A DNA stretch of 64,000 bases from a virus (taxonomy: Duplodnaviria > Caudoviricetes), in IMG/VR virus record IMGVR_UViG_3300048881_000734, positions 5,116-69,115 of that record; one strand, written 5' to 3'. Shown piece by piece: positions 1,911 to 62,059 of the stretch. Each line of letters begins with the position of its first letter. Positions within the stretch are counted from its first letter, which is position 1. The translations under genes and the position numbers were made by a program. The notes beneath the pieces are model-generated. The model had not been told where the DNA came from and did not search any database. It saw nothing but the letters and a program-made list of their open reading frames with translations.

Positions 1911-1914
1911 AAAC

Positions 1915-4944: not shown

Positions 4945-4952
4945 ATAGGAAT

Positions 4953-4980
4953 ATAGTAAGCAATCTTATGAGTGTTTACA
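4953..4980 (-). promoter_or_regulatory. Class A promoter for the tRNA(CAU)-tilS unit
   Basis: TGTAAA-N16-TACTAT. Confidence 0.55.
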
Positions 4981-46495: not shown

Positions 46496-46915
46496 CTACG
46501 TTGTGTAACGTCTAACCGCAACTCCCGCAGACATAAGTAGTTCGACTCCGGACAGATCCCTATATTCTTCATCATAAACAACTTCTTTTATACCGCCGTT
46601 AATCATGGCTTTTGCACACATCTTGCATGGGCTTAGGGTCACATACATGATTTTCTTCCCGCGGATATTATAGTCGCACTTTAACAAAGCGTTAATCTCA
46701 GCGTGGATCATTCCTGAATTTCCTGGCTCTATAGACTCTACTTCGTTTGGGCCACCCGAATAATTTCCGTTGTAGCCTACAGCCAGCACCTGTGTGTTTT
46801 CTTTCGTAACAATGACCGCACCTACCTGGTACCGCGGATCATACGACCGACGAGCAATGGAATGGGCAAAGCCCATCCATATTTCATCCCACGGGGGTCT
46901 ACCAACCGAGCTCAC
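46496..46915 (-). CDS. dCMP deaminase
   Basis: RPPWDE, VGAVIV, GYNG, HAEINAL, LSPCKMC. Confidence 0.92.
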   Translation of the reverse strand: MSSVGRPPWDEIWMGFAHSIARRSYDPRYQVGAVIVTKENTQVLAVGYNGNYSGGPNEVESIEPGNSGMIHAEINALLKCDYNIRGKKIMYVTLSPCKMCAKAMINGGIKEVVYDEEYRDLSGVELLMSAGVAVRRYTT

Positions 46916-47549
46916 TTAGATACCTCTTTAGACTATCACAACTCTCAACTTCATCACCCCACACAGACCAGCCCGCAAGCTGCTGACGACCAAAAAGCTC
47001 AACCTTCGACTGGTCGGGAAACATTTGCTCAATCCGAGCTCTAACTTCATCAGGTTTCTTGCTGTGCTGCTCTCGCATATGCTCAAGATATTGTCTGACA
47101 TTTCGGGCACCCCTGGGACGTGGAATCTTTCCGTTCTTTCCTACCAAGCAAAGCTCACACTGAGACATGGTATAAAATCCTGGATTGACTCTCATCTTGT
47201 TCCAGACAAAAGCCACCGTAGAGTATTTTAAGCCCCAGCTTTTTAGAAGCTCAATGCCCTGGTCCAGGTGTGGGTTTGTACACCACATGAAAACAAGAGA
47301 ATCTTCATTCAGAAGCTTCTGCATTGGAAACTGCTTGAGCTGTTTTAGCTTGAGTGTACCATAATGCTTGCGAGCGCCACCTGTATCCCCCATTCCAGGC
47401 TTAGAATGTTGTAGCTGACCTTTGTAATCCCATGGTGGATCCAAATAGACAATGTCAAACCTCGGGTTCTGCGTCGTCAAAAAGTTCTTCAATGTGTTTC
47501 TCCTTAGGCAAAGTAAACCCTGCTGCTTTCTTGTGGCCACCGCCACCAA
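46899..47549 (-). CDS. MT-A70 family N6-adenine methyltransferase
   Basis: DIVYLDPPW, LVFMW, HSKKP, VELFGR; start uncertain. Confidence 0.9.
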   Translation of the reverse strand: MVAVATRKQQGLLCLRRNTLKNFLTTQNPRFDIVYLDPPWDYKGQLQHSKPGMGDTGGARKHYGTLKLKQLKQFPMQKLLNEDSLVFMWCTNPHLDQGIELLKSWGLKYSTVAFVWNKMRVNPGFYTMSQCELCLVGKNGKIPRPRGARNVRQYLEHMREQHSKKPDEVRARIEQMFPDQSKVELFGRQQLAGWSVWGDEVESCDSLKRYLSELGW

Positions 47550-48309
47550 ATCCCTTTGCTATTTCAGAGACATCAACCATCTCATGAAATGCTCGTAAAC
47601 TTACTTTAGTGTTTTGACTCTCATGATCCCAATACCAAATCAAAGCGAAATCGCAATCCGGTGCAAGGCGGGCTCCAATCTCAGACATCCAATGTGATGA
47701 ATTTACAACGAGTACCTCTTTGCCACCCATTTTTCTTTTTTGAGCTTGCTCACAAACTTTCTTAACTACTGTCTTGGAATAGGCCAAAATATACGAGCCC
47801 CGCTTACAAGCGTCATCAAAAACAGAGTCATCTTCAAACTTTTCAAATTCTTCGAACTCAAAAGGAACCATGTCGAAAGCAGCGCTGAACTCTTTGGAAT
47901 ACTCTAGCTTCCACTCCCAGAGGTCGCGGTCTTGAATATACTTGATAAATTTCGGTGGCTCCTTACCTGGATGGAAATATTCCCAAGCAAGTATTGCACC
48001 ACTCTTTGTCATATCGAAATGAGTGTTTGAAATATCGTGTAGCTCTACCATCGCCGACTTGTGATGATCAATAATAAGCAGGTTCTTTGCTTTTTTTATC
48101 ATTTTTTTTGTAGTTGTTTTGCCATAAGAGAAATCAAGTATCACCACATTTTTTCCCTTTACGTCGGGTGGTGGTGTTCCATGTTTACAGGCAAAATACT
48201 CTGCCCTATTTCCAAGCTGTTTCCAGGCTGCATAAGCAGCCCCGAATCCATCAGTGCAATCTGCATGATAAATGACTACGTTAACTGAATTGGGGTCCAT
48301 TGAACTCAT
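47455..48309 (-). CDS. DHH/DHHA1 phosphoesterase
   Basis: YHADCTDG, LDFS, IDHH, GGGGHKKAAGF. Confidence 0.9.
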   Translation of the reverse strand: MSSMDPNSVNVVIYHADCTDGFGAAYAAWKQLGNRAEYFACKHGTPPPDVKGKNVVILDFSYGKTTTKKMIKKAKNLLIIDHHKSAMVELHDISNTHFDMTKSGAILAWEYFHPGKEPPKFIKYIQDRDLWEWKLEYSKEFSAAFDMVPFEFEEFEKFEDDSVFDDACKRGSYILAYSKTVVKKVCEQAQKRKMGGKEVLVVNSSHWMSEIGARLAPDCDFALIWYWDHESQNTKVSLRAFHEMVDVSEIAKGFGGGGHKKAAGFTLPKEKHIEELFDDAEPEV

Positions 48310-48329
48310 AATAATCCTGGGATAGAATT

Positions 48330-48761
48330 TTAATTATCATTTTCTGGGTGAACGTACGTATACCTCGTGTCATCAATAACTTCTCTACCATAATCATCCT
48401 CCAAGCGGACAGCTTCGCTACCGTATCCCGAGGATATTTCGAACACAACACTGTCATCGATGGCGGTCAGTCTATAAGCGCAGCCTGCCTGTACGTTCAA
48501 CAGACTTCCCTTTTCTAAGCGCACAATTCTGGCAGGTTCCGCGGTGGGATCCTGAAAATGTTTTTCATCAGCAATCTCAGCTTTAATCACGCCGTGCTGT
48601 ATGTAGAGCACTTCAGATTTGCAAGGATGAAACTTTAAACTAGTGCGGTGGCCGGCCAGGAGGTGGATTTCTTTTCCTTGAAATATTCCACCCCACGTAA
48701 TTTCGAAGCCCCACGGTTTTTCCGTGGACTTCGCTTCACCGGTCCAGATGCATCTATTCAT
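48330..48761 (-). CDS. Cupin, mannose-6-phosphate isomerase-like
   Basis: EKPWG, TSLKFH..KSEVLYI, RLEDDYGR. Confidence 0.8.
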   Translation of the reverse strand: MNRCIWTGEAKSTEKPWGFEITWGGIFQGKEIHLLAGHRTSLKFHPCKSEVLYIQHGVIKAEIADEKHFQDPTAEPARIVRLEKGSLLNVQAGCAYRLTAIDDSVVFEISSGYGSEAVRLEDDYGREVIDDTRYTYVHPENDN

Positions 48762-49774
48762 TACTCAATTAGCTCCCACCATTTCAATGTCCTTCCTAGT
48801 CCGTCCCAAAATTGTACTTGAGGGCTCCACCCAATTTCTCTACCAATTTTATTTATACACGCGAGTGTGTGCTTAACATCGCCGGCGCGTTCGGGTGCAT
48901 TGGTAACTGCTAAATCAGAAAAATGCTCCTTCAATGTGGCCAAAATTTGGTTATTAGAAACCGACTCACCAGTGGCCACGTTATAGACTTCAAATCCAAT
49001 TGGAGTATCATGATCTGCCACGACCAGCATTGCGGTGGCGATATCTTTCACATATACCATATCACGGGTTTGTTCGCCGTCGCCATCGCTACGGAGGGGT
49101 TCATTCTTAGAAAGACGAGTACACCACGCTGCAATTGCTGTAGAGTATGGTGAGTCCCCCAGCTGACCAGGACCATAGACATTAAAAAAGCGCAATGCTA
49201 CGAAGTCCATCTCATACAGCTTATTATACATTTCACCAAATTGCTCCACAACAAGCTTTTGTAGCCCGTAGGGAGATGTCGGATCCTCAGCTTGACCCTC
49301 ATTTGTTGGCAACTGGGATACCTCACCATAGCATGCTGAGGAAGATGCAAATACAAACCGGTCAATGTTGTGAATTGCTGCTGACATTAATTCAATTGTC
49401 TTCTGAACGTTCGTATGCGTGGTCAGTGCTGGATACTTTACTGAAAATTCCACTCGCGGATTAGCAGCTAAGTGGAAAATAACATCATATCGAGATTTCG
49501 CCACACGAGACAACACTGGCCCAGCGGCAAAATCAGAAGTTATCACCAATAACTTTCCGGGAGTGGCAGCGATTGCAGGCGCTTGTTCTTTATCATATAG
49601 ATGAAGAAGATGCTCAGTGACAGTCCTAAATTCCAGCCCCTCAAGAGCTGTTAAGTCTCCGTTAGAAAGGTCATCAACCCCTTCAACATCCCAACCGGCA
49701 GCTATAAGCTGCCTGGTTACGTGACTTCCAATAAACCCACAGCAACCTGTGACCAATGCTTTACGTGTGTGCAC
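48761..49774 (-). CDS. NAD-dependent nucleotide-sugar epimerase (GalE/WbpP-like)
   Basis: LVTGCCGFIGS, FHLAA, ASSSACYG, YGLQK, RFFNVYGP. Confidence 0.93.
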   Translation of the reverse strand: MHTRKALVTGCCGFIGSHVTRQLIAAGWDVEGVDDLSNGDLTALEGLEFRTVTEHLLHLYDKEQAPAIAATPGKLLVITSDFAAGPVLSRVAKSRYDVIFHLAANPRVEFSVKYPALTTHTNVQKTIELMSAAIHNIDRFVFASSSACYGEVSQLPTNEGQAEDPTSPYGLQKLVVEQFGEMYNKLYEMDFVALRFFNVYGPGQLGDSPYSTAIAAWCTRLSKNEPLRSDGDGEQTRDMVYVKDIATAMLVVADHDTPIGFEVYNVATGESVSNNQILATLKEHFSDLAVTNAPERAGDVKHTLACINKIGREIGWSPQVQFWDGLGRTLKWWELIE

Positions 49775-50318
49775 AAAAATCCTCCGCCTTCCAATTTTTA
49801 TTAATTCCTAAGAACATTTTAATCTTTTTCACCTGTTTGTTCAAGTCCATGTCATCTGTTTCCAAAATCAGAAAATCACATCCCGTATATTCTGCAAACT
49901 CACGATAATTAGCGTCCAATATTCTTAACATCTCAGGTGGCAATTGATCAGGATATTGGTCATCGATTAAGCCAGAATAATCCTGTCGTAAGCAAATGAT
50001 AAACTTTCCACCAACTTCACGAAAATTCTTATCCATCCAATCAATCGCCGACATATCGGTACCCCGACCGAATGCAGTTGCGTACACAAGCTCACATGGG
50101 TAAAAGCGATCCAAGATAACCGATATATTCGTTTGACGAATAAAGTCCATCAAAAATGGGCCGCCATATCGGAGCAAATTAAGAAAATAATCCGAACTAT
50201 CAAGCTGTGTCTTCCATTCACCAGAGTTTTTGAACACAGGAAGTCCCGTCTGACGAGAGAGCTCTTCAGCAATGTTCGACTTTCCAGTCATGTCTGGTCC
50301 GATAAACGCAAGCTTCAT
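49761..50318 (-). CDS. Thymidylate-kinase-like dNMP kinase
   Basis: GPDMTGKS, LDRFYPCELVY. Confidence 0.85.
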   Translation of the reverse strand: MKLAFIGPDMTGKSNIAEELSRQTGLPVFKNSGEWKTQLDSSDYFLNLLRYGGPFLMDFIRQTNISVILDRFYPCELVYATAFGRGTDMSAIDWMDKNFREVGGKFIICLRQDYSGLIDDQYPDQLPPEMLRILDANYREFAEYTGCDFLILETDDMDLNKQVKKIKMFLGINKNWKAEDFCAHT

Positions 50319-51370
50319 GCCTGGTAGTCCCCCAGAAAGTGCTCGAGAAGATCTACCCTATACTCAGGCCTTGGATCGATTACAGTCCTCAGAGCCTCCT
50401 CCTGTGCATCAACCAAAGCTTTCCGCTCAGCGGCATTTAAAGTTGCGATCCACCTCACCTTTTCAATAACATCTGTAATAGAATCGACAAGAAGCGATCC
50501 ATCAGTCAGACCAACGGGAACAGCATGTTCAAACTCAGTTGGAATCAAGGCTGGAACATTACTCTTTATCGCTTCGAAAAAACGACCTGTGATGTTCCCA
50601 AAGGGTGTGTACGCATCTTTGGTGATGTGTGTAACAGTAAGAGAAGAATTTAATACGCCAAAAATATCTTTATACGCCAAGCGGGGTCCGAAAGCAACAT
50701 GCGGAGTTTGAGCGATCAAGACGCCTGGGTCTGTTCGTTCCGGAGATTTATTGAGCCAATTTCCATAAATTGAAGTTTGAATACCGTGCATTCGCAAATA
50801 TTTGCTTGGCTCAACATAGTACTTGTTGAACTGGTACTCTCGCTCGTAATTGTTCCCAACGTATGTATAGTTGTAAGAATACTCAACTGGGTCATAATAC
50901 CGCTTCATATAATTGCACCATGGGATAGTAATACGCTTTCGAGTCTGGTGTTGCGGGGCGACGCATGCATCTGCAAGAATTGCATTCGGCCACCTTTCTT
51001 CTTCTTCGGGAGTCATCTTTAGATCTCCGTCCACAATCACAATCGGAATGCCTTGCTCATGATAATAATCTAGAACTTCGCACTGGCGTTTGTAGTCCGG
51101 CTCTACTGGATTCTCTCCCGAGTTTTTCCATGTTGGCCAGCGCCACTCGACATAAAGAATATCCCCATCGGGATAGCCTGTATTGTCATATTGCACACCC
51201 GGATATTGCTCATCATCGCGGAGCATTTGTAGCTGTATTGGCGTGTGGCCACGCTTTAGCAATTCATTAACAAAATCAACTCGATTTCCACGTTCACCGT
51301 CTGGGGTCTCAACAATGCTGTTCTTCTCGAGCGGGGTAATAAAGCCCCAAAAACTATACAATACCTTCAT
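50315..51370 (-). CDS. GT-B glycosyltransferase resembling T4 DNA beta-glucosyltransferase
   Basis: 351 aa; YGNW, ITGRFFEAIKSNVPALIPTEFE, RKALVDAQEEAL align by eye with the T4 BGT C-terminal domain as recalled (FGNA, ITLRVWETMASDAVMLIDEEFD, RKEMLSIQHDIL). Confidence 0.7.
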   Translation of the reverse strand: MKVLYSFWGFITPLEKNSIVETPDGERGNRVDFVNELLKRGHTPIQLQMLRDDEQYPGVQYDNTGYPDGDILYVEWRWPTWKNSGENPVEPDYKRQCEVLDYYHEQGIPIVIVDGDLKMTPEEEERWPNAILADACVAPQHQTRKRITIPWCNYMKRYYDPVEYSYNYTYVGNNYEREYQFNKYYVEPSKYLRMHGIQTSIYGNWLNKSPERTDPGVLIAQTPHVAFGPRLAYKDIFGVLNSSLTVTHITKDAYTPFGNITGRFFEAIKSNVPALIPTEFEHAVPVGLTDGSLLVDSITDVIEKVRWIATLNAAERKALVDAQEEALRTVIDPRPEYRVDLLEHFLGDYQA

Positions 51371-51385
51371 TTTTTCTCCATAATA

Positions 51386-52516
51386 TTATTCATTATAACC
51401 GATCCAGCCACGGTTTTCAAGTTCACGCTTGGCTTTTACCAAAGCGGAGCCGATCACCTGGTGCATATCGTAATACTTGTACTCTGACAATCTTCCCCCG
51501 AAGATAACACCTTCTTCCGCATATGCCATTGCAGCATATTTCTTGTACATGGTACTGTTCTTCTCATCATTGATTGGATAGTAGGGTGTTTTACCACGGA
51601 CATATTCATCTGAATACTCTCGAGTAACAATCGTATTCTTCAGCTTCTTAGCTTCATTAGGCAAAAAATGCTTGTGCTCAACAATCCGAGTGAAGGGAAT
51701 ATCTGGATGGGTATAATTTACCACAGCGTTCCCCTGAAAGTCTCCGTCGAGCTCTTCATGCTCAAAGCGAAGTGTCCGATACTCCAGCTCCCCATGACAG
51801 AAATTAAAGTACTCATCAATCTTACCCGTAAAAACAACTTTTTCTGCCAGCATATCATATACTTCACGATGTTCAAAGTAGTCTGAGTCTGTTTTTACCT
51901 CAATCCCTTCCAGCATATTAGCGACCATCGCAGTGTACCCGTCAACCGGAATTCCCTGGTATTTATCAAAGAAATAATTTTCATCGAAGGTAAGACGAAT
52001 TGGAAGCCGCTTTATAATTGACGCAGGAAGCTCCTTTGGATCGCGCTGCCACTGCTTCATGGTATACCCCTTGATGAAAGTCTCGTACACTTCACGCCCT
52101 ACCTGCGATAGAATCCAATCCTCAAGATTATCAGGATTTTCGCAGGGGATACGCACTTCTTCTAGCTTTTTCTCTGCTTCTGCGGGTGTCTTCACACCCC
52201 AGAGCTGGTGAAGCGTCATTAAGTTAATGGGGAAGGAAAAAATTCGATCCTTGAAACGGATCTTTGGTTTGTTGACATAATTGTTGAACGTTGCAAAGCG
52301 ATTAACGTACTTCCAAATTTTCTCATTGTTCGTGTGGAAAATATGAGCGCCATACACATGCACATCGATTCCGTTCCTCTTTTCTGAATAAACATTTCCG
52401 CCGATGTGTGGACGCTTGTCAAGCACGATACACTTGTAACCGGAATCTGTCATTTCCCTGGCAAACGTTGCACCGAATATTCCAGCGCCTACGATTAGAT
52501 AGTCGAATTCTTTCAC
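51386..52516 (-). CDS. glf: UDP-galactopyranose mutase
   Basis: IVGAGIFG, HIGGN, HVYGAHIFHT, YTMKQW, YQGIP, TRIVEHKHF, PYYP, GRLSEYKYYDM. Confidence 0.96.
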   Translation of the reverse strand: MKEFDYLIVGAGIFGATFAREMTDSGYKCIVLDKRPHIGGNVYSEKRNGIDVHVYGAHIFHTNNEKIWKYVNRFATFNNYVNKPKIRFKDRIFSFPINLMTLHQLWGVKTPAEAEKKLEEVRIPCENPDNLEDWILSQVGREVYETFIKGYTMKQWQRDPKELPASIIKRLPIRLTFDENYFFDKYQGIPVDGYTAMVANMLEGIEVKTDSDYFEHREVYDMLAEKVVFTGKIDEYFNFCHGELEYRTLRFEHEELDGDFQGNAVVNYTHPDIPFTRIVEHKHFLPNEAKKLKNTIVTREYSDEYVRGKTPYYPINDEKNSTMYKKYAAMAYAEEGVIFGGRLSEYKYYDMHQVIGSALVKAKRELENRGWIGYNE

Positions 52517-53544
52517 TTCTTTCTCCTTGTGTTGAATGCATAACCACTGAATCTTAAATCTCTAAGAAGGTTTGCTGCTTCTTCTTTTTGGTCTAGCTTC
52601 CTCAGGCGATCTGCCGCTAAAATGACGGCCCAATCAGCCCAAACAAAAGCCGATGCCGAAGGATATGCAAACGATCGTCGTAAGCTTGATTCAACTGCGT
52701 CTAAACTGGTGGCAGTAGAAATATCATCCTCAAACTCCATTAGTCGATCGATCCAAAACGAAAGCTCGTCGCGAGAGGTACACTCAACTGCTGGCATTGC
52801 GCGGTGGCGCTTATATAATTCAAACTGAGACTTATTGACATTGGCAGTTTTCAGAATCGTTTCTGCCATATGAAAATGTCGCTCATATATGTGCAGAGAA
52901 TTACTCATATGAGTATAGGCACCAAGCTCCACACCAAGCTCATTCGCAAGAAGCTCCTGGAATAGAGTGAATGCTGGAATGTCATAAGCAATCCCAAAGA
53001 TCACATCTGAACTCCTCATATTGACAATCTGATGGAGCTTTCCGTCTCTAATAAAAAATTGAAGAGCCAGTGTGCATGGGACGTCTAGCTTGGCATCAAC
53101 GCTATCGTCAGGTACTCGCAAATGCATGACCGCTCTACGAGAGTCTGGGTCTCGCTTCAATTCGTTAACAACGTATTCCCACTGATTAAGCCTTCCACCC
53201 GCAATCTTGGGGTGCTCTTTGAAAAGACGAGCGCCATACGCAGAATTTGCAGTTACCCCATCATCACTAATATCTTTCCAGAACTTCGAGTATTTCGCGA
53301 TCCACTCTGTCTTGTCATTACCAGAAAGATACCACAGCAATTCAGCAACCATATAGGTCACGCTAAACTTTCGGCCGGCGACATAGGGGATGCGATCCCG
53401 GGGATTTAGAATCGTAAAAGAAGCCGCAAGAATTTCTTTAACCTTTTGTCCTCGGGGCGCCGCTTCAAAATCCGGGGTCTCATAAACATTTCTGACAAGT
53501 GCTAGATAGCAATGCGTGAAAGATTGATAGGTTCCAATGTGCAC
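52513..53544 (-). CDS. Thymidylate-synthase homolog, dCMP-specific (dCMP hydroxymethylase-like)
   Basis: AELLWYLSG, YGAR, DSRRA, catalytic PCT, MRSSDVIFGIAYD with Asp at the ThyA Asn177 position, SLHIYERH. Confidence 0.85.
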   Translation of the reverse strand: MHIGTYQSFTHCYLALVRNVYETPDFEAAPRGQKVKEILAASFTILNPRDRIPYVAGRKFSVTYMVAELLWYLSGNDKTEWIAKYSKFWKDISDDGVTANSAYGARLFKEHPKIAGGRLNQWEYVVNELKRDPDSRRAVMHLRVPDDSVDAKLDVPCTLALQFFIRDGKLHQIVNMRSSDVIFGIAYDIPAFTLFQELLANELGVELGAYTHMSNSLHIYERHFHMAETILKTANVNKSQFELYKRHRAMPAVECTSRDELSFWIDRLMEFEDDISTATSLDAVESSLRRSFAYPSASAFVWADWAVILAADRLRKLDQKEEAANLLRDLRFSGYAFNTRRKK

Positions 53545-53580
53545 TTTTTACTCCACTTAATAGTGATTGTAGACTTTTTT

Positions 53581-53608
53581 ATCATATACGAAGACGCTTA
53601 ACTTTACT
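53581..53608 (-). promoter_or_regulatory. Class A promoter heading the modification operon
   Basis: AGTAAA-N16-TATGAT. Confidence 0.45.
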
Positions 53609-56600
53609 CATAGATGTTTGATATCCGAAATCATTTTTCTTAATTTCGGCAACACACAGACTGTACAGCGGCAGTTCAGTTTCACCATCCCATCCCCAAC
53701 AAAACATTCGAAAATTCTTTCCGTCAAGGCCAGTTGCTGTGACAAGAAGATAGGGCCTCTTGTTCTTTGTAAGCTTTTCCTTCACATCTGAAACAAGGAA
53801 CCAATAGAGGTCATGGCCATTAGCTTCGATACCATCGATACACTGGATCCCTTTCTCCACCAAACGCTCCTGAACTTCACCGCTAATCAATGTCGAGGCG
53901 TTAAAAGAACCGAAGTGCTTGACGCTGTTTTCCACCCGCTCTCGGCGTGACCAGCGACCGGACCCCTGAGTATCAAGAAGAGCTTCTTTGAAGTTATTCT
54001 TTCCACGCTCAGGATCTCGTTTGGTCCATTTCTTAATATCGGTGTTGCGATTTATGAGCACCTCATGCATGTGCTTATAGCTTTCAAACATATTCCCAGG
54101 ACCGACCAAATTCATGGACTCAAATGCCCGGATGTTGATGAGCGCCTCAAGAGCACGTTTGTTAAACTTTGAGTGTCTCCATTTTCCTTCTTCGGTCCAC
54201 AGCAAGTCATCAATATTCTCATAAGGTCGATTCATAACGAGCTCATCAATCGCTGCTTCGCCAATTCCCTTGCAAGACAAGAGGGAGGGCATAAACTTCT
54301 TACCTTCAAGGATGGTCCACTTCTTCGTGGCGTAATTGATGTCAAGCGGAACTACGTCATAGCCAAGTGCCTTAACTTCTGCAAACGCTTTTGCGCGCTT
54401 CTTGTCATTCCCAGACATTGCTTCTAGATATGCACAGAGCCATTCTTCCTCGTAGTATGTGAGTAACCAAGCGCAATAATACGAGTCGATTGCATACGAA
54501 ACAGCATGCGCTTTGTTAAACCCGTAGCCTGAGAAATACAGAATCTTTTCGTACAAGTCATCTGCAAGCTGCTCATCTACTCCGTTACTCACAGCCCCGG
54601 CGACGAATCGAGTCTTGATCCCTCGAGCCTGAGCTAGTGACTCAGCTGCCTCTGACGCTTTTCGCTTCATAATGCTACGGCGAACAGTGTCAGTTTCTTC
54701 TTCAGGGAAACCAGCCACAACAGAACACAACTTCATGATCTGCTCTTGGAAAACAATCATACCATACGTTTCTTCAAGGACCTCTTTGATCAGTGGGTGG
54801 CCATAATCCACGCTTTCAGGATTGTTCTTGGCCTTGATATAGTGCCTGTCTACCTTCGCTGTGAGTGGGCCAGGCCGGTAAATCGATGTCAACGTTGCAA
54901 TATCAACGATGCTTTTCGGCTTCGCCTTTCGAAACAGGTTTCTAGACCCACGGTTCGCTAACTGGAACACACCGGGAAAACGACCCTCAGCATAAACGTG
55001 TGTGTAAACATGTTGATCATTCATATCCAGAACTTTCGGATCCATATGATTGTTAAACCATTCATAGACTTGGTCAAATGTTGGGTCTTCAATCCCTTCC
55101 TTCCGGTGCAAGATTAATTCGATTGTTCTTTGAATAATACGCAATGTCTCTAGCCCAAGCAAGTCAAACTTAATCCAGCCAAAAGTTTCTAAATGCTTGT
55201 AATTCATCCCCTCAGCCCAAGGCGTCTGGAGCTCTCCCCTTGCCTTAATGAGTGGCATCCGCTCTGCAATATCTTCAGCAACAATGCAACCACCTGCGTG
55301 CCGGCCCAAGGCTTTGTTCTGCTTGAACAGGACCTGAATCGGTTCAGCCACTTCTGGATGCATCGCGATGAATGTACTAAATTTCTTTGAATGAGCTAAC
55401 GCATCTTCATAAAGAAGAACGAATAGGTTCTTATCAGTACCAGGCTTGAAGACTGCGCGCCTGACATCTTCGTCGACAGAGGAAAGAGCTTTGTTGACTT
55501 CGTTAAAGGGGATGCCATAAAAGCGCGAAATATCTTTCACCAACGACTTCAATTTGAAAGTGTTGTAGTTAGAGATCGGAACAATATTGGCATCTCCCCA
55601 CTCCTCCTTCATCATATGAAGCAGAAGATCGCGGTCGCCGACATCTGTGTCAATATCGGGAGCACCTTTTCGTGATGGGTTCAAAAACCTCTCAAACATC
55701 AGATCATATTCAAATGGATCGACGTCCGTTAGACGAAGAACATACGCCACCAAGCTTCCCGCGGCGGAGCCCCGACCTGGTCCGACGAGCATTGCCTTCT
55801 TAGCAATGTTGATGATTGCGGTCATGGTTAAAAAGTATCTAGAAAACTTCTTATCCTTAATGACTTGAAGCTCATATTTCAATCGTTCGATATACTTTTG
55901 ATCACCTGCGAGTCCGCGCTCAATGAGCCCCTCCTTACATGCTTCGAGAAGCGCTCTGTCATCAGTCTGCCCTTCGGGAACAACATAAGATGGAAGCTTC
56001 ATCGTGCGGTCTGGGGAAATCTCTTGGATCTCTTCATGGACAATCTGGTGTGGTCGTTCGATGGCGGCTTTCACCAGCTCATCATCATAAAACTCCATAC
56101 CCTCAGTGCTTTTAAGATATGTGTCCCACAGCTGCTCCGCATTCTTTGGATAGAGCTCGCACTTCAAGTCGTCTTTCGACTTAGGGAGCTTGGACGGATC
56201 AAAATCCCGATAGTTAAGCCACCCAAGCTTTTTGTAGAGCTCACGCTCACGCCAATGTTCTGGACGTGCATAATGTGAATCAGTTGTCACGACAAGCTTG
56301 TCTTCAATACCCTCTTGCTGCGCAAACTCAATGATGGCTCGATTCACAAGATGTTGGGCAGGGAGCTGGTTAAATTGAATCTCAAGATGTACATCCTTCA
56401 TACCCACCGCATCAACTAGCCCCTGATAAGCATTCCCGACGCCAGTCATAACATTGTTACGAAACGATGGATCGTTCATTAACTTATAGCTTAAATCATC
56501 AAACTCGACCTGCTGCGCGTGGCGGAAGACCTCATAAGCAAGAGGGCCGCCAATACAAGCCGTCGAGACCATCAGGTGGCCACCTTCGGCCGCTTCCCTT

Positions 56601-57202
56601 AACATCCTATAGTCGATGCGCGGAAACCTATAGAAACCCTCTCTGTAGCCTCGACTTACAAGGTGGAATAATCTTTGGAGACCCTCACTTGTCTTAGGCA
56701 AAACCACCAGGTGGTGCCGGCGCTTGACGGGATCATAAAACTTCGAAGACTTTGTCTCATCTTCGTTCTCAATTGTCAAGCCGATGTCATCGCTTCCAAT
56801 ATCAATAATCTCATCATCACCATCAACAATAGCTGTAAGAGGTGTGGCGATTGCTTCTCGCCGAGCGCGTAATTCAAACAGCGCCTTCTTATCACCCTTC
56901 TTTGCTGCTTGGCGAATATCATAATCCAAGTGCCAGGCTTCCAGGTCTGGATGGACATACATCTCACACCCTGGAACGAATTTAAACTTTCCCCCTCGCT
57001 TCTGAATCTTCTCTGCGTGGAGAAAAGCATGGCCGAATGAATTCATGTGACCATGATTCGTAAGACACCAGCCATCCATTCCATTCTCTATAACAAAATC
57101 GATATGTTCTTGCGGGTACCCAAGGCCATCAAATGTGCTGAACCCATCATGTGCATGAAGGGAAATAAACTTACTGGGGGGCGTAAGTAATGTCTTTCTC
57201 AT
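53582..57202 (-). CDS. dnaE: DNA polymerase III alpha subunit (family C)
   Basis: PHP domain (HAHDGFS, TNHG, PGCE), GPGRGSAAGSLV, PDIDTD, RHAGG, KFDLLGL, SGYGFNKAHAVSY, C-terminal OB-like region. Confidence 0.97.
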   Translation of the reverse strand: MRKTLLTPPSKFISLHAHDGFSTFDGLGYPQEHIDFVIENGMDGWCLTNHGHMNSFGHAFLHAEKIQKRGGKFKFVPGCEMYVHPDLEAWHLDYDIRQAAKKGDKKALFELRARREAIATPLTAIVDGDDEIIDIGSDDIGLTIENEDETKSSKFYDPVKRRHHLVVLPKTSEGLQRLFHLVSRGYREGFYRFPRIDYRMLREAAEGGHLMVSTACIGGPLAYEVFRHAQQVEFDDLSYKLMNDPSFRNNVMTGVGNAYQGLVDAVGMKDVHLEIQFNQLPAQHLVNRAIIEFAQQEGIEDKLVVTTDSHYARPEHWRERELYKKLGWLNYRDFDPSKLPKSKDDLKCELYPKNAEQLWDTYLKSTEGMEFYDDELVKAAIERPHQIVHEEIQEISPDRTMKLPSYVVPEGQTDDRALLEACKEGLIERGLAGDQKYIERLKYELQVIKDKKFSRYFLTMTAIINIAKKAMLVGPGRGSAAGSLVAYVLRLTDVDPFEYDLMFERFLNPSRKGAPDIDTDVGDRDLLLHMMKEEWGDANIVPISNYNTFKLKSLVKDISRFYGIPFNEVNKALSSVDEDVRRAVFKPGTDKNLFVLLYEDALAHSKKFSTFIAMHPEVAEPIQVLFKQNKALGRHAGGCIVAEDIAERMPLIKARGELQTPWAEGMNYKHLETFGWIKFDLLGLETLRIIQRTIELILHRKEGIEDPTFDQVYEWFNNHMDPKVLDMNDQHVYTHVYAEGRFPGVFQLANRGSRNLFRKAKPKSIVDIATLTSIYRPGPLTAKVDRHYIKAKNNPESVDYGHPLIKEVLEETYGMIVFQEQIMKLCSVVAGFPEEETDTVRRSIMKRKASEAAESLAQARGIKTRFVAGAVSNGVDEQLADDLYEKILYFSGYGFNKAHAVSYAIDSYYCAWLLTYYEEEWLCAYLEAMSGNDKKRAKAFAEVKALGYDVVPLDINYATKKWTILEGKKFMPSLLSCKGIGEAAIDELVMNRPYENIDDLLWTEEGKWRHSKFNKRALEALINIRAFESMNLVGPGNMFESYKHMHEVLINRNTDIKKWTKRDPERGKNNFKEALLDTQGSGRWSRRERVENSVKHFGSFNASTLISGEVQERLVEKGIQCIDGIEANGHDLYWFLVSDVKEKLTKNKRPYLLVTATGLDGKNFRMFCWGWDGETELPLYSLCVAEIKKNDFGYQTSMSKVKRLRI

Positions 57203-57221
57203 AATATCTCCGAATTAGAGT

Positions 57222-57249
57222 ATTCTAAAAGAATATAAGCATATTTTCA
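57222..57249 (-). promoter_or_regulatory. Class A promoter for dnaE
   Basis: TGAAAA-N16-TAGAAT. Confidence 0.45.
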
Positions 57250-57435
57250 GGAGAAAGCCGGGTGAGGGGGTATTTTTTCTATGGACGTCCTCTGGACATA
57301 AATGACGTGATTAGATATCAATAAAGCGGCCCAGTCTTCTTCTAGAGAAATAACGAGCCCGAAATCTCCTGGGTGGAGCAGGTAGGTGGCATTATCGTCA
57401 CCAACCCCAACATGCTCATCCATAAGCACTGCCAT
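57247..57435 (-). CDS. Small SH3-like protein
   Basis: HPGDFGLVIS. Confidence 0.5.
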   Translation of the reverse strand: MAVLMDEHVGVGDDNATYLLHPGDFGLVISLEEDWAALLISNHVIYVQRTSIEKIPPHPAFS

Positions 57436-57449
57436 GTCACCCGGGCGTG

Positions 57450-58145
57450 TCAGGGCTCACCTCGCTCTGACAAAAGCTGTTCTGCCTGCTCTTCAGTAAG
57501 AGAAAACCCACGAGATGAAAGAAGAGTCCGAAGCATTTTTGCCCTTAATGAGGGAACCCCCAAAGACTCTCCCCATTGCCACTCTTCCGTATTTTCGACT
57601 GTGGCGATATCTTCTCGAATATTTTTAATCTTAGTGGTCAATAACGGGATGAGAGCTTCGTCATTCATGTCTGCCTCGATATCTAATTCGACTGCTACAC
57701 CGATGAGGTCATCAAGCTTACCGGCCTCGAGAGCTTTACTCGCACGTAAAAAACTCTGCCGAAGCTTTTCCCTCAACCCATCATCACTGATTCTGTCAGG
57801 ATGCGTCATTAGAGCAATCTTCTTAAATAACTTTCGAGCCCACCCTGGTGCTTCAGACTTTTTAGGCCCTGCTTTCTCAGGAAAATATTCTGCATCTCTC
57901 GCTCTGTAGTCTGGGTCATCTCTCGCTAAATCAAATATCTTGTGTTCATTTTCGGCAGTGCTTTCATCATCCACTCTTTCAGTAATTTCACCGGCTCTGT
58001 TGGTAAAAAATGTCAGGTCCCTCAGATATTCGTTCTTATATTCTTCATGCAATTCCACTATTTGGAAATAATAATGATGAAGCATTTGAAGCTCGGATTG
58101 TAACAGCCTGATTTTTCGTCGGGCAATTCTTGGGGGAATATGCAT
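57450..58145 (-). CDS. J-domain co-chaperone-like protein
   Basis: LFKKIALMTHPDR (helix II plus HPD). Confidence 0.75.
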   Translation of the reverse strand: MHIPPRIARRKIRLLQSELQMLHHYYFQIVELHEEYKNEYLRDLTFFTNRAGEITERVDDESTAENEHKIFDLARDDPDYRARDAEYFPEKAGPKKSEAPGWARKLFKKIALMTHPDRISDDGLREKLRQSFLRASKALEAGKLDDLIGVAVELDIEADMNDEALIPLLTTKIKNIREDIATVENTEEWQWGESLGVPSLRAKMLRTLLSSRGFSLTEEQAEQLLSERGEP

Positions 58146-58156
58146 AGCATCTCTAA

Positions 58157-58546
58157 CTATGCATTCAGTCGATCACATATAATCTCATGTTTCCTTATGT
58201 AAGCATCAAAAAATTCTTTATGGTCAACTCCAGCTAACACAATTATTGCCATAAAATAATTGAACGCATCAATCATTTCTTCAAGAAATTCTTCGCGATT
58301 GAAGTCTGGCATCCCATAGGTCGCTTCCCTGTGGTCTTTCCAATTCTTCAAATGTAAAAGGGCTTCAAAAAGCTCTTCCATTCCACGAAAAGCAAGTTCT
58401 CGAATAGCTTGCTGATTTTGTTTTTTGCTGAGGTCAACCGGCCACTCAGGATACGCATCAGGTACCCTCTCATTTATCATCCGCATGAACTCTTCACGCA
58501 GAGAAAACATTTCCTCTAATTTATTCTGCTGTGGCTTCATCGGCAT
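58157..58546 (-). CDS. Dimeric all-alpha dNTP pyrophosphatase (dUTPase/dCTPase, MazG-like)
   Basis: EELFEAL..KNWK, LEEMIDAFNY. Confidence 0.8.
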   Translation of the reverse strand: MPMKPQQNKLEEMFSLREEFMRMINERVPDAYPEWPVDLSKKQNQQAIRELAFRGMEELFEALLHLKNWKDHREATYGMPDFNREEFLEEMIDAFNYFMAIIVLAGVDHKEFFDAYIRKHEIICDRLNA

Positions 58547-58781
58547 CAGCGCTATGATCTGCTTCGCGGAGCTCAGTCATCATCTTTTCCAGGTTGCCAT
58601 TAAAGTTTTCAGCATATGCTGGATCTAGATTGATCGTACCTGTGACGTTATCAATCGTAAACTGCACAGCTCTAAAATGATCAATGATATCTGTACCGGT
58701 CAGCATAGCAAGCTGCAAAAGCTGTGCGACATGACCAATCGTTGTATCAGACATAGTGTGGACATTTGTTGTAGGTTCCAT
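58521..58781 (-). CDS. Small hypothetical protein
   Basis: AGGAG SD; QLLQLAMLTGTDIID. Confidence 0.7.
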   Translation of the reverse strand: MEPTTNVHTMSDTTIGHVAQLLQLAMLTGTDIIDHFRAVQFTIDNVTGTINLDPAYAENFNGNLEKMMTELREADHSADADEATAE

Positions 58782-58802
58782 TTTTTCTCCTTAACTAGAC
58801 GT

Positions 58803-58831
58803 ATTATAGTCACATCTTACGATAGTGTACA
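58803..58831 (-). promoter_or_regulatory. Class A promoter
   Basis: TGTACA-N17-TATAAT. Confidence 0.5.
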
Positions 58832-59239
58832 TAGAAAAGTGTGATAATCCACTAAGGCATGATCGACCGGGTCGACATCTTGCCACTCACCCTTTATGAA
58901 TATTCGATGAGCATCATCAGCATATTTTCCGCACCCATAAAGCTCAATTACATTACTCCACCGCTTAGTGACAAACTCTTCGCTAAATGCCTTAAGTGTT
59001 CTAACTCTGCGATTTACTAGCCCAAGCGGCTTCAGGATTGCACGTAGGTCTTCTTCAACTGCTTCAACCACTGCTTCCGGATTAGGAAAAAGTTGAAAGA
59101 ATGTTGCTATCATCGGCTCAACTTGCTTTCTTGCGGTCTGGTTCAGTAGAAGACAAACCACAAGCATCTTCCACTCGTCCGGCCAATAGCGTTCTTGCAA
59201 GAGATCGAATGGAGATTCGGGTGGGATCCATGTTACCAT
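58817..59239 (-). CDS. MBD4-like HhH-GPD DNA glycosylase
   Basis: WKMLVVCLLLNQT, LKPLGL, ELYGCGKYADD, EWQDVDPVDH. Confidence 0.85.
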   Translation of the reverse strand: MVTWIPPESPFDLLQERYWPDEWKMLVVCLLLNQTARKQVEPMIATFFQLFPNPEAVVEAVEEDLRAILKPLGLVNRRVRTLKAFSEEFVTKRWSNVIELYGCGKYADDAHRIFIKGEWQDVDPVDHALVDYHTFLCTLS

Positions 59240-59244
59240 ATGTT

Positions 59245-59272
59245 ATGATAACAGTTTTCTCTGTTTTTTACA
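59245..59272 (-). promoter_or_regulatory. Class A promoter
   Basis: TGTAAA-N16-TATCAT. Confidence 0.5.
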
Positions 59273-59588
59273 GATAATTCATCGCCCAAGCAAAGGCGGC
59301 CATAGCAAATTGGACCACTGCAAAAACAGTGACTGCTTTTGTCTTAAAAACCTTGAGGTCTTCCACTTCTTTGACCATTGTGCTCAGCTGTGTTGGGGAC
59401 GCCACTTCGTCGATCTTCTCTTTCCAAGCCTTGAGATCATCAACACGATCTTCTCTTTCACGCATTCTAGCAATTTCCTGCTTAAGCTCTTGAATTTCTG
59501 AATTCAGAGATTGAATGCTGCTAGCTAGCGTCTCAAGTTCTTTAAGAACCAGACGTGAATATTCACTCCAGCCACTATCTTCAGGCAT
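59268..59588 (-). CDS. Coiled coil with C-terminal TM helix
   Basis: Heptad repeats, then AVTVFAVVQFAMAAFAWA. Confidence 0.7.
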   Translation of the reverse strand: MPEDSGWSEYSRLVLKELETLASSIQSLNSEIQELKQEIARMREREDRVDDLKAWKEKIDEVASPTQLSTMVKEVEDLKVFKTKAVTVFAVVQFAMAAFAWAMNYL

Positions 59589-59844
59589 TGTCTTCCTCCG
59601 TTGTGGCTTCTGGTAAAGCGCAAAGTTGTCTTAAGATATTCTCTATCCGGGTCTTACACCAAGTGCATCGTGGATCCTTCTCATGCGGAGCCTCTAATTC
59701 ACCAAGCACGTCTTGAAGCTCACTGATGACAAAGTCTCTAACTTCAAACCCAGCCTTCCATTCCACTGACTTGCTACACAGCTGGTCTCTCAAATTGCGA
59801 AGCTTCGCCACTCTCTCTTGAAAACAGTCAGAATCACTAGACAT
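59581..59844 (-). CDS. Small hypothetical protein
   Basis: 87 aa with CxxC. Confidence 0.6.
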   Translation of the reverse strand: MSSDSDCFQERVAKLRNLRDQLCSKSVEWKAGFEVRDFVISELQDVLGELEAPHEKDPRCTWCKTRIENILRQLCALPEATTEEDNA

Positions 59845-59895
59845 ACAGATACTCCAAACAAACGCTACGCAGAATATGCATTCTTAATTATACGT

Positions 59896-60600
59896 TTATC
59901 TGCGATTTTCTTTATATGCGCTGATTGTTTCGGGCCAAATTTCTTCTGCGATCTGTAGACACGCTTTAGCTAGCTGCTGTATCTCCCACTGGGCACCTTC
60001 GTGAATTCGAAGCTCAATAAATTTTAGAAGATTGTTGAGATTAACCGTGCCATAATACTCTGAATAGAGATTCTGGGGAAGCACTCCTCGCGCCTGCTCA
60101 CGACAAACTCCGTTCTTCATCAAGTCATTGTAGAGTCTTAAAGACAGTTGATGGTGCTGAGCTACGCAGTACGAAGCCGTCAGCCCGTAATCTGTATCAC
60201 TCAAGTCTGGAATTATGACTGGGTCAATTTTGTTTTTTAAATTGGAGGCTTGACGATTTGACTTGTGCTGTGTCCGAAATTCTTTTGGCTCGTAAAAGCG
60301 AATATCGACGTCTGTATATCGACGAGATATCTCGTTGTATGACCAAGTTCTATGCCGATGATGCTGGCTACGCACGAACAGAGGCACAATAAAGCGAAAC
60401 GTAATCACATTATGCTCGAAGGTGGATGTATGCTTGTGCTTGATAAGATATCTGATAAGCTTCTTATCTTTTTCGTCAAGCTCTGCCCGTGTTTTTCCAA
60501 ATGAAACTCGAGCGCTATTAACAATCGTTAAGTCGGTTCCCATGTGCTCCACATATTCAACGGCCCCAATGCCGTCGTCATAAAGCTCAATTCTCTTCAT
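59896..60600 (-). CDS. thyX: Flavin-dependent thymidylate synthase
   Basis: VNSARVSF, HTSTFEH, RSQHHRHRTWSYNEISRRY, REQARGVLP, AQWEI. Confidence 0.96.
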   Translation of the reverse strand: MKRIELYDDGIGAVEYVEHMGTDLTIVNSARVSFGKTRAELDEKDKKLIRYLIKHKHTSTFEHNVITFRFIVPLFVRSQHHRHRTWSYNEISRRYTDVDIRFYEPKEFRTQHKSNRQASNLKNKIDPVIIPDLSDTDYGLTASYCVAQHHQLSLRLYNDLMKNGVCREQARGVLPQNLYSEYYGTVNLNNLLKFIELRIHEGAQWEIQQLAKACLQIAEEIWPETISAYKENRR

Positions 60601-61032
60601 TCAGTACTCCATGTCTTTACGAATTTCTTCTTCACTCTTCGCTCTTTTATCTTCATACTCTTGCTTTACATTAATGATCGGGACCGGCTCACCGTCGCCA
60701 TCAATTCTCACAAACGTCATTTCAACGCTGCACACTGAACGTTGCGATCCGTTTACCACGCTATGCCGTCGAGCCTCAAGCTGAGTTGTGATTGAAGTCG
60801 TGCCAATCTTAATAACATCGCCGTAAATTTTAATGATTTGTCCGGGTCGGACCGGCTTATTGAAGACAACTTCTGATATACATTTCGTCACCATCCGAGG
60901 GGAGCCGCACACCTGCGCCGTGAATGCCGCGCCGGCTTCATCAAGCCACGAAAGCATGACGCCACCGAACAAGTTGCCATGTACCCCGATATTCTGCCCT
61001 TTACAGATATGTGTTGAAATAAGTTGCATCAT
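60601..61032 (-). CDS. Hotdog-fold acyl-CoA thioesterase
   Basis: HGNLFGGVMLSWLDEA, FNKPV, IGTTS. Confidence 0.9.
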   Translation of the reverse strand: MMQLISTHICKGQNIGVHGNLFGGVMLSWLDEAGAAFTAQVCGSPRMVTKCISEVVFNKPVRPGQIIKIYGDVIKIGTTSITTQLEARRHSVVNGSQRSVCSVEMTFVRIDGDGEPVPIINVKQEYEDKRAKSEEEIRKDMEY

Positions 61033-61038: not shown

Positions 61039-61066
61039 ACTCTAATTCTTACATGACAAATTTACA
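61039..61066 (-). promoter_or_regulatory. Class A promoter
   Basis: TGTAAA-N16-TAGAGT. Confidence 0.45.
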
Positions 61067-62059
61067 AAGCTGCAATACCACCTTATAGGGATCGCATCCT
61101 GACGAGGGTCGTCGATCTTCTAAATAACCCTTCCACCCATCTTCAACGACCGCTGTTGGAATCCTGACTGATGTGTCACGGGAGCCGACACCGTAAGTAA
61201 AGCTGCTCAAGCTTGCTGTTTCAAATCCACCAGTGAGGCGGAGGCCGTTATCTTCTCCATACTCAGAGATTGATTCAATGTGACGAGTCTCCATATTGGC
61301 TAATATTCTTTCAAACTCTTCCTCACCACCGGATTCTCGCATTAGCTTTGTGGAGAAATTAGTGTGGCAACCAGAACCATTCCACCCATCATGAGGCTTC
61401 GGATGCCACTCAACACCGATATCCAAATCTTCGCACATAAGCTCAAGTAGATATCGACTTACCCATAAAGAATCAGCGGCTGTAATTGGATTTTCCGCAA
61501 AACACTGGTATTCCCACTGACCGGGAGAAACCTCAGCGTTGTATCCCACAATCTGAATACCGATTCCGTTACAAAATGTTGCATGCTCTCGGACGAGTTT
61601 TTTATATTTTACGCTTCCGCCCGAAGAACAGTAGTATCGAGAATCCTTAATAGGCTCGCCCTGATCGGGCCAAAAAATATTTTTCCCGTTCGCGGTGAAG
61701 AAATACTCTTGCTCAAACCCTACCCAGATTTCCTCTTTTTCAGCTCCTGCAGTCATCACTTCACGGAGCTTTGCTCGATAGTTGGTCCTGTGCGGTGTTC
61801 GATCTGCGTCAGGTAGGCAAACCTCACACATGGCAACATAATGATTATCTGCAATTTGATACAACGCCTGGGGCCTGAGAATTCTTTCCGAATTAGCGGT
61901 CTCCGCTTGGCCGGTCGAAGATCCATCAAAATTCCACTCAGGTACATTTAATTCTACCTCACCCTTTTCATCGGGGGTCAATACAATTGCTTTTGTTTTT
62001 GAACGTATGGATGGGTGCTTAAACCCATCCACCCAAATATAATCCAGATGAACTAACAT
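61049..62059 (-). CDS. glnII: Glutamine synthetase, type II (short form)
   Basis: YIWVDG, WNFDGSSTGQA, GFEQEY, NAEVSPGQWEYQ, HPKP..WNGSGCHTNFS, GYLEDRRP. Confidence 0.93.
   Translation of the reverse strand: MLVHLDYIWVDGFKHPSIRSKTKAIVLTPDEKGEVELNVPEWNFDGSSTGQAETANSERILRPQALYQIADNHYVAMCEVCLPDADRTPHRTNYRAKLREVMTAGAEKEEIWVGFEQEYFFTANGKNIFWPDQGEPIKDSRYYCSSGGSVKYKKLVREHATFCNGIGIQIVGYNAEVSPGQWEYQCFAENPITAADSLWVSRYLLELMCEDLDIGVEWHPKPHDGWNGSGCHTNFSTKLMRESGGEEEFERILANMETRHIESISEYGEDNGLRLTGGFETASLSSFTYGVGSRDTSVRIPTAVVEDGWKGYLEDRRPSSGCDPYKVVLQLCKFVM

Follow-up and report, generated by a model that had tools for sequence, protein, structure and literature searches.

A predicted cytosine hypermodification module with a UDP-galactopyranose mutase and a distant relative of T4 beta-glucosyltransferase in an uncultured jumbo phage

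Layout of the block, its synthase and its glycosyltransferase

Glycosylation of 5-hydroxymethylcytosine (hmC) is a classic means by which phages shield their DNA from restriction enzymes and CRISPR. We analysed a 64,000-nt stretch of phage DNA (bases 5116-69115 of the 69,115-bp IMG/VR viral contig IMGVR_UViG_3300048881_000734; hereafter the window, whose coordinates are used below) that carries a block of genes resembling the cytosine hypermodification system of phage T4. The completeness of the contig was estimated at ~25% by CheckV and its close relatives measure 281-290 kb, indicating that the source is a jumbo phage of ~280 kb. Genes were assigned from a list of open reading frames combined with Pfam, PHROG and NCBIfam scans (Table 1). 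Between 44 and 64 kb every gene lies on the minus strand. In the order of transcription, the genes encode ClpP, an amidase, a GlnII-like glutamine synthetase, a 4HBT thioesterase, ThyX, an MBD4-like glycosylase, a MazG/PRA-PH enzyme and the DNA polymerase DnaE, followed by a homolog of thymidylate synthase ThyA, the UDP-galactopyranose mutase (UGM) Glf, a 351-aa glycosyltransferase (GT), a P-loop protein, a short-chain dehydrogenase/reductase (SDR), a cupin, a DHH phosphoesterase, an MT-A70 methyltransferase and dCMP deaminase. The ThyA homolog and Glf genes share 4 nt, 15 nt separate Glf from the GT gene, and the GT and kinase genes again share 4 nt.

An earlier note on this DNA, made from its letters alone, had described one co-directional block here, and all of the genes it named were found on the minus strand within 46496-60600. 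Its gene list was correct, except that it overlooked the MT-A70 methyltransferase between the DHH phosphoesterase and dCMP deaminase. Its claim that the steps of the T4 pathway have counterparts here was also borne out, as a dCMP-specific hydroxymethylase, a kinase, an NTP pyrophosphatase, dCMP deaminase together with ThyX, and a transferase resembling T4 beta-glucosyltransferase (BGT) are all present at the level of gene assignment. We interpret the block as a cytosine hypermodification module in the style of T4. Two of its members are well supported, an hmC-type synthase and the BGT-like transferase coupled to it. The module gave no megablast match in 50,697 phage records. Predicted promoters and terminators between 44.0 and 61.5 kb did not exceed those of shuffled controls (31 versus 28.1 and 19 versus 15.5, respectively). 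Of the sigma-70-like matches there, the best (11 of 12 positions) falls at 51420-51392 (minus strand), where Glf ends and just upstream of the GT start.

Table 1. Genes of the block in the order of transcription, with window coordinates and supporting matches
Feature	Position	Strand	Match
ThyX, flavin-dependent thymidylate synthase	59896-60600	-	PF02511, 167 bits
MBD4-like HhH-GPD mismatch glycosylase, 140 aa	58817-59239	-	E 4e-36 to human and mouse MBD4 glycosylase domain, residues 3-136
MazG/PRA-PH-type NTP pyrophosphohydrolase	58157-58546	-	PF01503, 26.3 bits (cut-off 21.3); phrog_12184, E 1.3e-13
DnaE-type DNA polymerase III alpha, 1206 aa, directly upstream of module	53582-57202	-	PF07733, PF17657, PF02811, PF14579
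ThyA-family predicted dCMP hydroxymethylase, 343 aa	52513-53544	-	PF00303, 127 bits
UDP-galactopyranose mutase (Glf), 376 aa	51386-52516	-	TIGR00031, 373.7 bits (cut-off 303.75); PF03275, 262 bits; PF13450, 74 bits
GT-B glycosyltransferase, distant T4 BGT relative, predicted hmC glycosyltransferase, 351 aa	50315-51370	-	
P-loop kinase, candidate hm-dCMP (dNMP) kinase, 185 aa	49761-50318	-	Walker A GPDMTGKS; phrog_761
Extended-SDR NDP-hexose 4-epimerase (predicted), 337 aa	48761-49774	-	PF01370, 167 bits
Small cupin, 143 aa	48330-48761	-	phrog_7851, E 1.5e-10
DHH/DHHA1 phosphoesterase, 284 aa	47455-48309	-	PF02272, 36 bits; phrog_4771, E 1e-79
MT-A70 family DNA (adenine) methyltransferase	46899-47549	-	PF05063, 92 bits; phrog_359, E 1e-60
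dCMP deaminase, 139 aa	46496-46915	-	PF00383, 81 bits; phrog_174, E 8e-50

The best PDB match of the ThyA homolog was the CMP hydroxymethylase MilA (E 2e-50). The alignment to E. coli ThyA, whose numbering is used here, is gapless from the catalytic Cys to position 177, with the PCT motif aligned to Cys146, and it places D143, C146, R166, S167, D169 and D177 in the window enzyme. The same six residues are present in T4 gp42, as taken from the T4 record. Asp177 is responsible for cytosine selection and an acidic residue at position 143, which lets water in, accompanies hydroxymethylation (PMC13326640). ThyA homologs with D169N produce 5-hydroxy-dCMP (Lee et al., NAR 2026, PMC13326640). The two ThyA-like genes of Rhizobium phage RL38J1 were used as a control: one has the residues of an ordinary thymidylate synthase (P143/D169/N177) and the other, with E143/N169/D177, is the published 5-hydroxycytosine (5hoC) synthase. 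This agrees with PMC13326640, indicating that the residue mapping is sound. Every GT-linked ThyA homolog has D143, C146, D169 and D177, and S167 is present in all but that of locus L061, which has Ala. A 5hoC synthase of the RB69 gp48, DLP3 gp80 or RL38J1 gp216 type was considered and rejected, as D169 is kept in the window enzyme and in all of the GT-linked homologs. Together, the gp42-identical signature and the lack of D169N give good support for a dCMP hydroxymethylase type, that is, a predicted 5-hydroxymethyl-dCMP synthase. At the positions of MilA K133 and A176 the window enzyme has Arg and Ser (DSRRAV versus DSKRAV and MRSSD versus MRAND), and it thus carries the deoxyribose selectors Ser167 and Arg126'. 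The A176S/K133R mutant of MilA changes its substrate from CMP to dCMP (PMC5175136), so these residues indicate a deoxyribo substrate for the window enzyme.

The 351-aa protein gave no Pfam match at E <= 0.01, not even to PF09198, the T4-Gluco-transf N-terminal domain. It has 158 metagenome homologs at E <= 0.001, many of them with PF13524. When a profile of 45 homologs was compared with the whole PDB, the sole match was T4 BGT (E 2.6e-5), and hhalign of the GT against T4 b-gt gave E 1e-4. The profile match covers the C-terminal 100 residues (BGT 240-339), where the BGT segment ITLRVWET faces the family-invariant R263 and E266; we take this segment to hold R269 and E272 of BGT, the Arg/Glu motif that binds UDP. 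An AF2 model built from the 45-sequence alignment reached a pLDDT of 92.6 (33.6 for the single-sequence fold). The top structural match of the model was T4 BGT both in Foldseek (E 1.2e-10) and in VIA-align (1NZD; Z 23.0, root-mean-square deviation 3.7 Å over 308 residues). Set against this are the failure of PF09198 to match and the many GT4-type GT-B enzymes that lie within 1-2 Z units of BGT in VIA-align (Z 21-22). D114 and D116 are invariant in the family, and the N-terminal domain has no residue-level alignment to BGT that would give an equivalent of Asp100.

Genomic context is the stronger argument. Our survey of IMG/VR and public assemblies covered 63 loci with a GT relative at 26-86% identity, and a ThyA homolog with hmC-type residues was found within 10 kb of the GT gene in 58 of them; three of the five exceptions are truncated contigs. 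The BGT-like assignment made in the earlier note is well supported by these results. On its model, the 351-aa protein is predicted to be a GT-B enzyme that would work like BGT, outside Pfam family PF09198. A tblastn search with the window GT against the 50,697 phage records gave no match. Collectively, these findings make it likely, as judged from gene content and conserved residues, that hmC is made and glycosylated in this phage.

Glf and the transferred sugar

Glf is full length; it aligned over residues 4-364 to E. coli UGM (1I8T, E 3e-125) and matched C. jejuni UNGM (4MO2) at E 7e-124. Both the FAD-binding N-terminus (PF13450) and the GLF domain (PF03275) are present, and the protein scores above the NCBIfam equivalog cut-off. 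It has His59 and Lys168, as in E. coli UGM, whereas 4MO2 has R59 and R168; we take residues 59 and 168 to set the use of GalNAc. The SDR is a core module gene in nearly all relatives. Its score against the GalE model TIGR01179 was 158.2 bits, below the cut-off of 262.3, and dTDP-glucose dehydratase models scored lower than GalE. Its closest structures are the UDP-Glc/GlcNAc 4-epimerases 6DNT, 4ZRM, WbpP and WbgU, and its alignment shows SSSACYGE and YxxxK (YGLQK). We read these motifs as a Ser/Tyr/Lys catalytic triad with no dehydratase TDE motif, and the protein is accordingly placed, by its motifs, among predicted 4-epimerases of the extended SDR type.

Several observations link Glf to the DNA transferase. 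In a monophyletic GT clade that includes the window (support 100/99; hereafter the window clade), Glf lies between the ThyA homolog and the GT gene in all 12 distinct members. Glf also adjoins the GT gene in L054 and in L059/L064 (PF03275, 226 and 179 bits). On the GT tree, the presence of Glf beside the GT gene requires three state changes, and none of 500 label shuffles gave a number as low. In a FastTree tree of Glf, printed with no support values, the module Glf genes and those of cultured phages form separate lineages. One of these cultured phages, Lactobacillus phage ATCCB (MK504445), has adjacent genes for a ThyA homolog of hmC type (D143/D169/D177), a BGT (PF09198, 78 bits) and Glf. 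Its 'beta-glucosyltransferase' showed no significant similarity to the window GT in BLASTP, and hhalign gave just E 0.027. In Aeromonas phage Aes508 (NC_019543: 147159-158202; L073), whose gp42 homolog carries the hmC signature, the two genes after Glf encode unannotated proteins of 358 and 348 aa that match no Pfam family and are candidate DNA glycosyltransferases. Chemistry based on galactofuranose (Galf) and hmC may also occur in cultured phages, namely Lactobacillus phage ATCCB and Aeromonas Tulanevirus.

The pathway that we propose would begin with the ThyA homolog, which, judging by its gp42-identical residues, would convert dCMP to 5-hydroxymethyl-dCMP (hm-dCMP). The P-loop kinase, whose matches are weak, may phosphorylate hm-dCMP, and the MazG-like enzyme may deplete dCTP. 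In this scheme dTMP would be supplied by dCMP deaminase and ThyX, and the phage DnaE polymerase would incorporate hm-dCTP. After replication, the BGT-like GT-B enzyme would glycosylate hmC in DNA with a UDP-hexose donor derived from the phage 4-epimerase (UDP-Glc to UDP-Gal). In the window clade, the putatively co-transcribed Glf would contract this donor to UDP-Galf, and the product would be beta-D-galactofuranosyl-hmC if the GT inverts like BGT. Galf on hmC is the single most likely option for the transferred sugar, although we offer this prediction, drawn from gene content, tentatively and at something less than an even chance. We are slightly more reserved about the full proposal, in which a whole clade of ~280-kb uncultured jumbo phages would replace cytosine with beta-D-galactofuranosyl-hmC by means of a distant, previously unrecognised branch of T4 BGT and UDP-Galf made by the phage's own Glf.

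Evidence from other genomes weighs against this proposal. To place Glf more widely, its 80 best viral relatives were surveyed, 63 of which lie outside the window clade. None of these 63 loci has a ThyA homolog within 8 kb, and a BGT-like gene was found in only one. This suggests that Glf in viral contigs usually does something else. The sister clade, in which the GT is 57-60% identical to that of the window, has the same module, including the cupin, DHH phosphoesterase and deaminase, with no Glf inside it. Contig G015 (171.5 kb; GT 60% identical), on which the module and a glycan cluster are seen to be linked in one genome, has the module at one end and a Glf, 62% identical to that of the window, ~100 kb away. 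As G015 carries both loci, it would be wrong to describe the sister clade as having no Glf. The Glf cluster of G015 consists of an epimerase, GDP-mannose 4,6-dehydratase (GMD), UDP-glucose dehydrogenase, an SDR, Glf, a PD-(D/E)XK nuclease and two GT4 genes, and L094, a homologous contig at 83% nucleotide identity, has a GT2 gene immediately upstream of the cluster.

Within the window clade itself, genome G001 (92% complete) has a homologous glycan cluster at 38-70% protein identity that contains no Glf (L072, G001:C1:34000-53999). This cluster comprises a tail-fibre-like gene with an endosialidase-chaperone domain, three GT2 genes, a GT10-like gene, an epimerase, DegT, GMD, PD-(D/E)XK and two GT4 genes. 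The clusters of the sister clade (L094, and L158 of G015) have UDP-Glc dehydrogenase, the SDR and Glf in addition. The GT4 pair gives weak matches to PF20706, 'GT4 in conflict systems'. The GT2, GT4 and GT10-like genes of the window-clade cluster could be the real users of UDP-Galf. The presence of Glf in the glycan cluster of the sister clade and in the module of the window clade indicates that Glf has been relocated within this phage family, between the DNA module and a conventional glycan cluster. Its position beside a DNA glycosyltransferase is suggestive rather than diagnostic, because close relatives keep it in an ordinary glycan cluster.

The transferase offers no sign of a donor switch. 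Between the window-clade and sister-clade GT there are 12 fixed differences, nearly all of them conservative. The non-trivial ones (K269 versus M/Q and L293 versus W/F) are not consistently common to the other Glf-linked lineages, and the fixed differences are uninformative on the donor either way. To our knowledge, no GT-B enzyme uses UDP-Galf. Two arrangements would account for these data. UDP-Galf may serve the BGT-like GT in both clades, with the sister clade supplying it in trans, and the lack of change in the GT would then be explained as well. Alternatively, UDP-Galf may go to a non-DNA glycan in the two clades alike, in which case a single relocation would have produced the arrangement seen in the window. 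No GT2, GT1 or NTP_transferase gene was found in the 69-kb contig, which represents ~25% of the genome, and relatives have such genes elsewhere. The GT family profile gave no match in five contigs with a glycan-cluster Glf, all of which are fragments. The Galf-hmC proposal of the earlier note thus stands as one of two live readings: Glf adjoins such GTs in several Glf lineages, and the sister clade keeps it in a glycan cluster.

The other live reading is a pyranosyl hexose on hmC, in which the GT would use UDP-Galp, UDP-Glc or an N-acetylhexosamine (HexNAc) donor and Glf would feed a GT2/GT4 glycan of the virion or cell surface, having reached the module by one relocation. We regard it as somewhat unlikely. 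It is favoured by the place of the sister-clade Glf between the SDR and the PDDEXK-GT4-GT4 genes, by the glycan cluster in a nearly complete window-clade relative and by the absence of radical fixed substitutions in the GT. In the Glf tree, again with no support values, one larger group holds the Glf of both the window clade and the sister clade. Distant relatives have the module with the epimerase and no Glf (e.g. G005, 84% complete), and the rarity of ThyA homologs near viral Glf genes points the same way. However, Glf is repeatedly found beside DNA-type GTs and hmC synthases in unrelated Glf lineages, and in the window it is co-directional with DNA-metabolism genes from which it is separated by no more than the 4-nt overlap and 15-nt gap. 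The glycan cluster also has its own GDP-sugar supply (GMD, DegT). Furthermore, G004 has Glf but no GT2 or GT1 match in its 188 kb (67% complete), and GT2 genes are present in four of five relatives that have no Glf, so that GT2 does not track Glf.

It is improbable that the BGT-like GT adds a first pyranose to hmC and that further GTs, for example the GT4 pair, extend it into a chain with Galf or other sugars. GT4-like multi-sugar chains are documented on 5hoC, with Gal-Glc-Glc in RL38J1 and tri-arabinosyl in DLP3 (PMC13326640), processive and second-step GTs are documented on hmC (bioRxiv 10.1101/2023.12.21.572611), and the weak PF20706 match of the GT4 pair is in keeping with such a role. 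The GT4 genes, however, lie ~100 kb from the module in a cluster with a tail-fibre-like gene, GDP-sugar enzymes and GT2/GT10-like genes, a setting typical of non-DNA glycans, and the 69-kb contig has no second GT.

A different furanose on the base, arising from action of Glf on another UDP-sugar (UDP-GalNAc, UDP-L-Ara or a 6-deoxyhexose), is a shade more improbable again. The SDR is near UDP-GlcNAc 4-epimerases (6DNT, WbpP, WbgU), the window Glf is nearly as close to C. jejuni UNGM as to E. coli UGM, and the sister-clade Glf adjoins UDP-Glc dehydrogenase and an SDR. Against this, the window Glf has the His/Lys pair of E. coli UGM rather than Arg59/Arg168 of UNGM, and it exceeds the UGM equivalog cut-off. 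Finally, it is very improbable that the ThyA homolog and the GT act in a MilA-like way on free nucleotides or another acceptor with no DNA modification at all. In favour of such a role, no solved structure is closer to the ThyA homolog than that of MilA, and the acceptor (N-terminal) domain of the GT does not match BGT in sequence. Against it stand the deoxyribose-selecting Ser and Arg of the ThyA homolog, the location of this phage module, flanked as in T4 by the replicative polymerase and by dCMP deaminase, and the accompanying kinase, NTP pyrophosphatase and MBD4-like glycosylase.

Accessory and neighbouring genes

The P-loop protein matched phrog_761, 'thymidylate kinase' (E 9.5e-7). The 'dNMP kinase' label of the earlier note is weaker than stated there: besides this match and the Walker A motif, the PDB gave weak matches to dGK/dNK, YorR and cytidylate kinase at E 0.1-0.8, those behind the kinase assignment lying at ~0.1-0.3. 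The positional equivalent in L059 scores above the cut-off of PF02223 (thymidylate kinase), and the gene is kept beside the GT gene in nearly all relatives. The MazG-like protein gave nothing usable when compared with PDB sequences; it is a candidate dCTPase. The hits of the MBD4-like glycosylase include the MBD4 glycosylase-domain entries 4EW4, 4EVV and 4EW0, which we take to be complexes with 5-hydroxymethyluracil (5hmU)/T. MBD4 excises T, U and 5hmU opposite G. By extension from MBD4, the phage enzyme could repair deaminated hmC and so serve the upkeep of an hmC genome. It is present in some relatives only.

The cupin has no Pfam or PDB sequence match. The sugar-isomerase label it received in the earlier note comes down to its ESM-Atlas neighbours, which bear Cupin_2, MannoseP_isomer and Lyx_isomer, and it is possibly sugar isomerase-like. 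Among the relatives compared, the cupin is confined to the window clade and the sister clade, and the MT-A70 methyltransferase to the window clade. The latter is 76-92% identical in most of the members with Glf in the module, ~29% identical in some and undetected in L023/L024. Its listed TTG start overlaps the DHH gene by 95 nt, which makes the start codon uncertain, and the true start is probably later. The DHH phosphoesterase is 59-93% identical in most relatives that keep it and 46% identical in L041.

The GlnII-type glutamine synthetase homolog (61049-62059; NF041605, 273 bits, below cut-off) and the 4HBT thioesterase (60601-61032), both on the minus strand just upstream of ThyX, could belong to auxiliary metabolism or act as additional modification enzymes. 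In the sister-clade locus L008 (ENA contig k141_300373, 257,751 bp; positions 1-5300), the DnaE gene is in pieces bearing intein-splicing domains (PF14890). Elsewhere in the window there are genes for a full Hsp70/DnaK (1915-3804; 832 bits), a Cpn60-like chaperonin (30355-31935) and a CCA-adding/poly(A) polymerase (11094-12782), as well as a weak tubulin/FtsZ-like match (21997-23208; 24.6 bits, below cut-off).

Comparison with known systems

If the Galf prediction is true, this would be the first hexofuranose on hmC and its transferase the first GT-B enzyme to use UDP-Galf. The DNA sugars known so far (glucose, gentiobiose, and arabinofuranose on 5hoC) would be joined by a further ring form, whose transfer would call for a Galf-transferase of a new kind. 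Each new DNA sugar alters which host nucleases, both type II and type IV such as GmrSD and McrBC, see the DNA, and each new sugar system yields enzymes for hmC labelling chemistry. The question of the sugar is addressable in the cultured phages ATCCB and Aes508/phiAS4.

A close parallel is the glucosyl-hmC system of the T-even phages (T4 gp42, gp1, gp56, Cd and b-gt). The window shares with it the gp42 signature, the order polymerase-hydroxymethylase-GT (as genes 43/42/b-gt), a GT-B enzyme for which BGT is the sole PDB profile match, and the presence of dCMP deaminase and an NTP pyrophosphatase. It differs in that its GT has no PF09198 N-terminal match, its synthase is long and MilA-like (343 aa), and it uses ThyX and DnaE. 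Relative to T4, the module also adds a 4-epimerase, Glf, the cupin, the DHH phosphoesterase and MT-A70, which makes UDP-Glc an improbable donor.

The earlier note knew of no UGM-dependent Galf base, and this is now out of date, as phage-made UDP-Galf has been proposed in Rhizobium phage RL38J1 as the donor for the base-proximal galactose on 5hoC (Lee et al., NAR 2026, gkag646, PMC13326640). Like the window, RL38J1 (Pootjesviridae) has a phage Glf (44.5% identical), a ThyA-family cytosine enzyme, a kinase and DNA GTs. In contrast to the D169 enzyme of hmC type in the window, the RL38J1 synthase has D169N and yields 5hoC, with an ether linkage. Its Glf gene lies far from the synthase and GT genes, and in tblastn the window GT showed no detectable similarity to any RL38J1 gene. 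Our literature search on Galf and DNA hypermodification returned PMC13326640 only; on Galf on hmC, the window GT family, the UNGM residues or Glf of Aeromonas phages it returned nothing.

Another parallel is the 'subclass II' GT of metagenomic phages, which together with an SDR epimerase puts a hexose, HexNAc or hexuronic acid on hmC only when the epimerase is co-expressed (bioRxiv 10.1101/2023.12.21.572611). The core of GT and epimerase follows the same logic as the window module. Unlike in the window, hmC is made there after replication by a C5-methyltransferase and a TET-like dioxygenase rather than by a ThyA homolog, and the paper mentions no mutase or furanose. ATCCB and the Aeromonas Tulanevirus phage Aes508 resemble the window in having Glf near DNA-GT-type genes and an hmC-type synthase. 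They belong to other phage families, however, and no homology was detected between their GTs and that of the window; we found no published DNA chemistry for ATCCB or the Aeromonas Tulanevirus phages in the literature. Together, these comparisons indicate that published work already covers glycosylated hmC, DNA GTs that depend on an epimerase and, for 5hoC, the proposal of a Glf-linked glycosyl-cytosine, whereas the predicted Galf on hmC and the GT family described here, known only from metagenomes, would be new.

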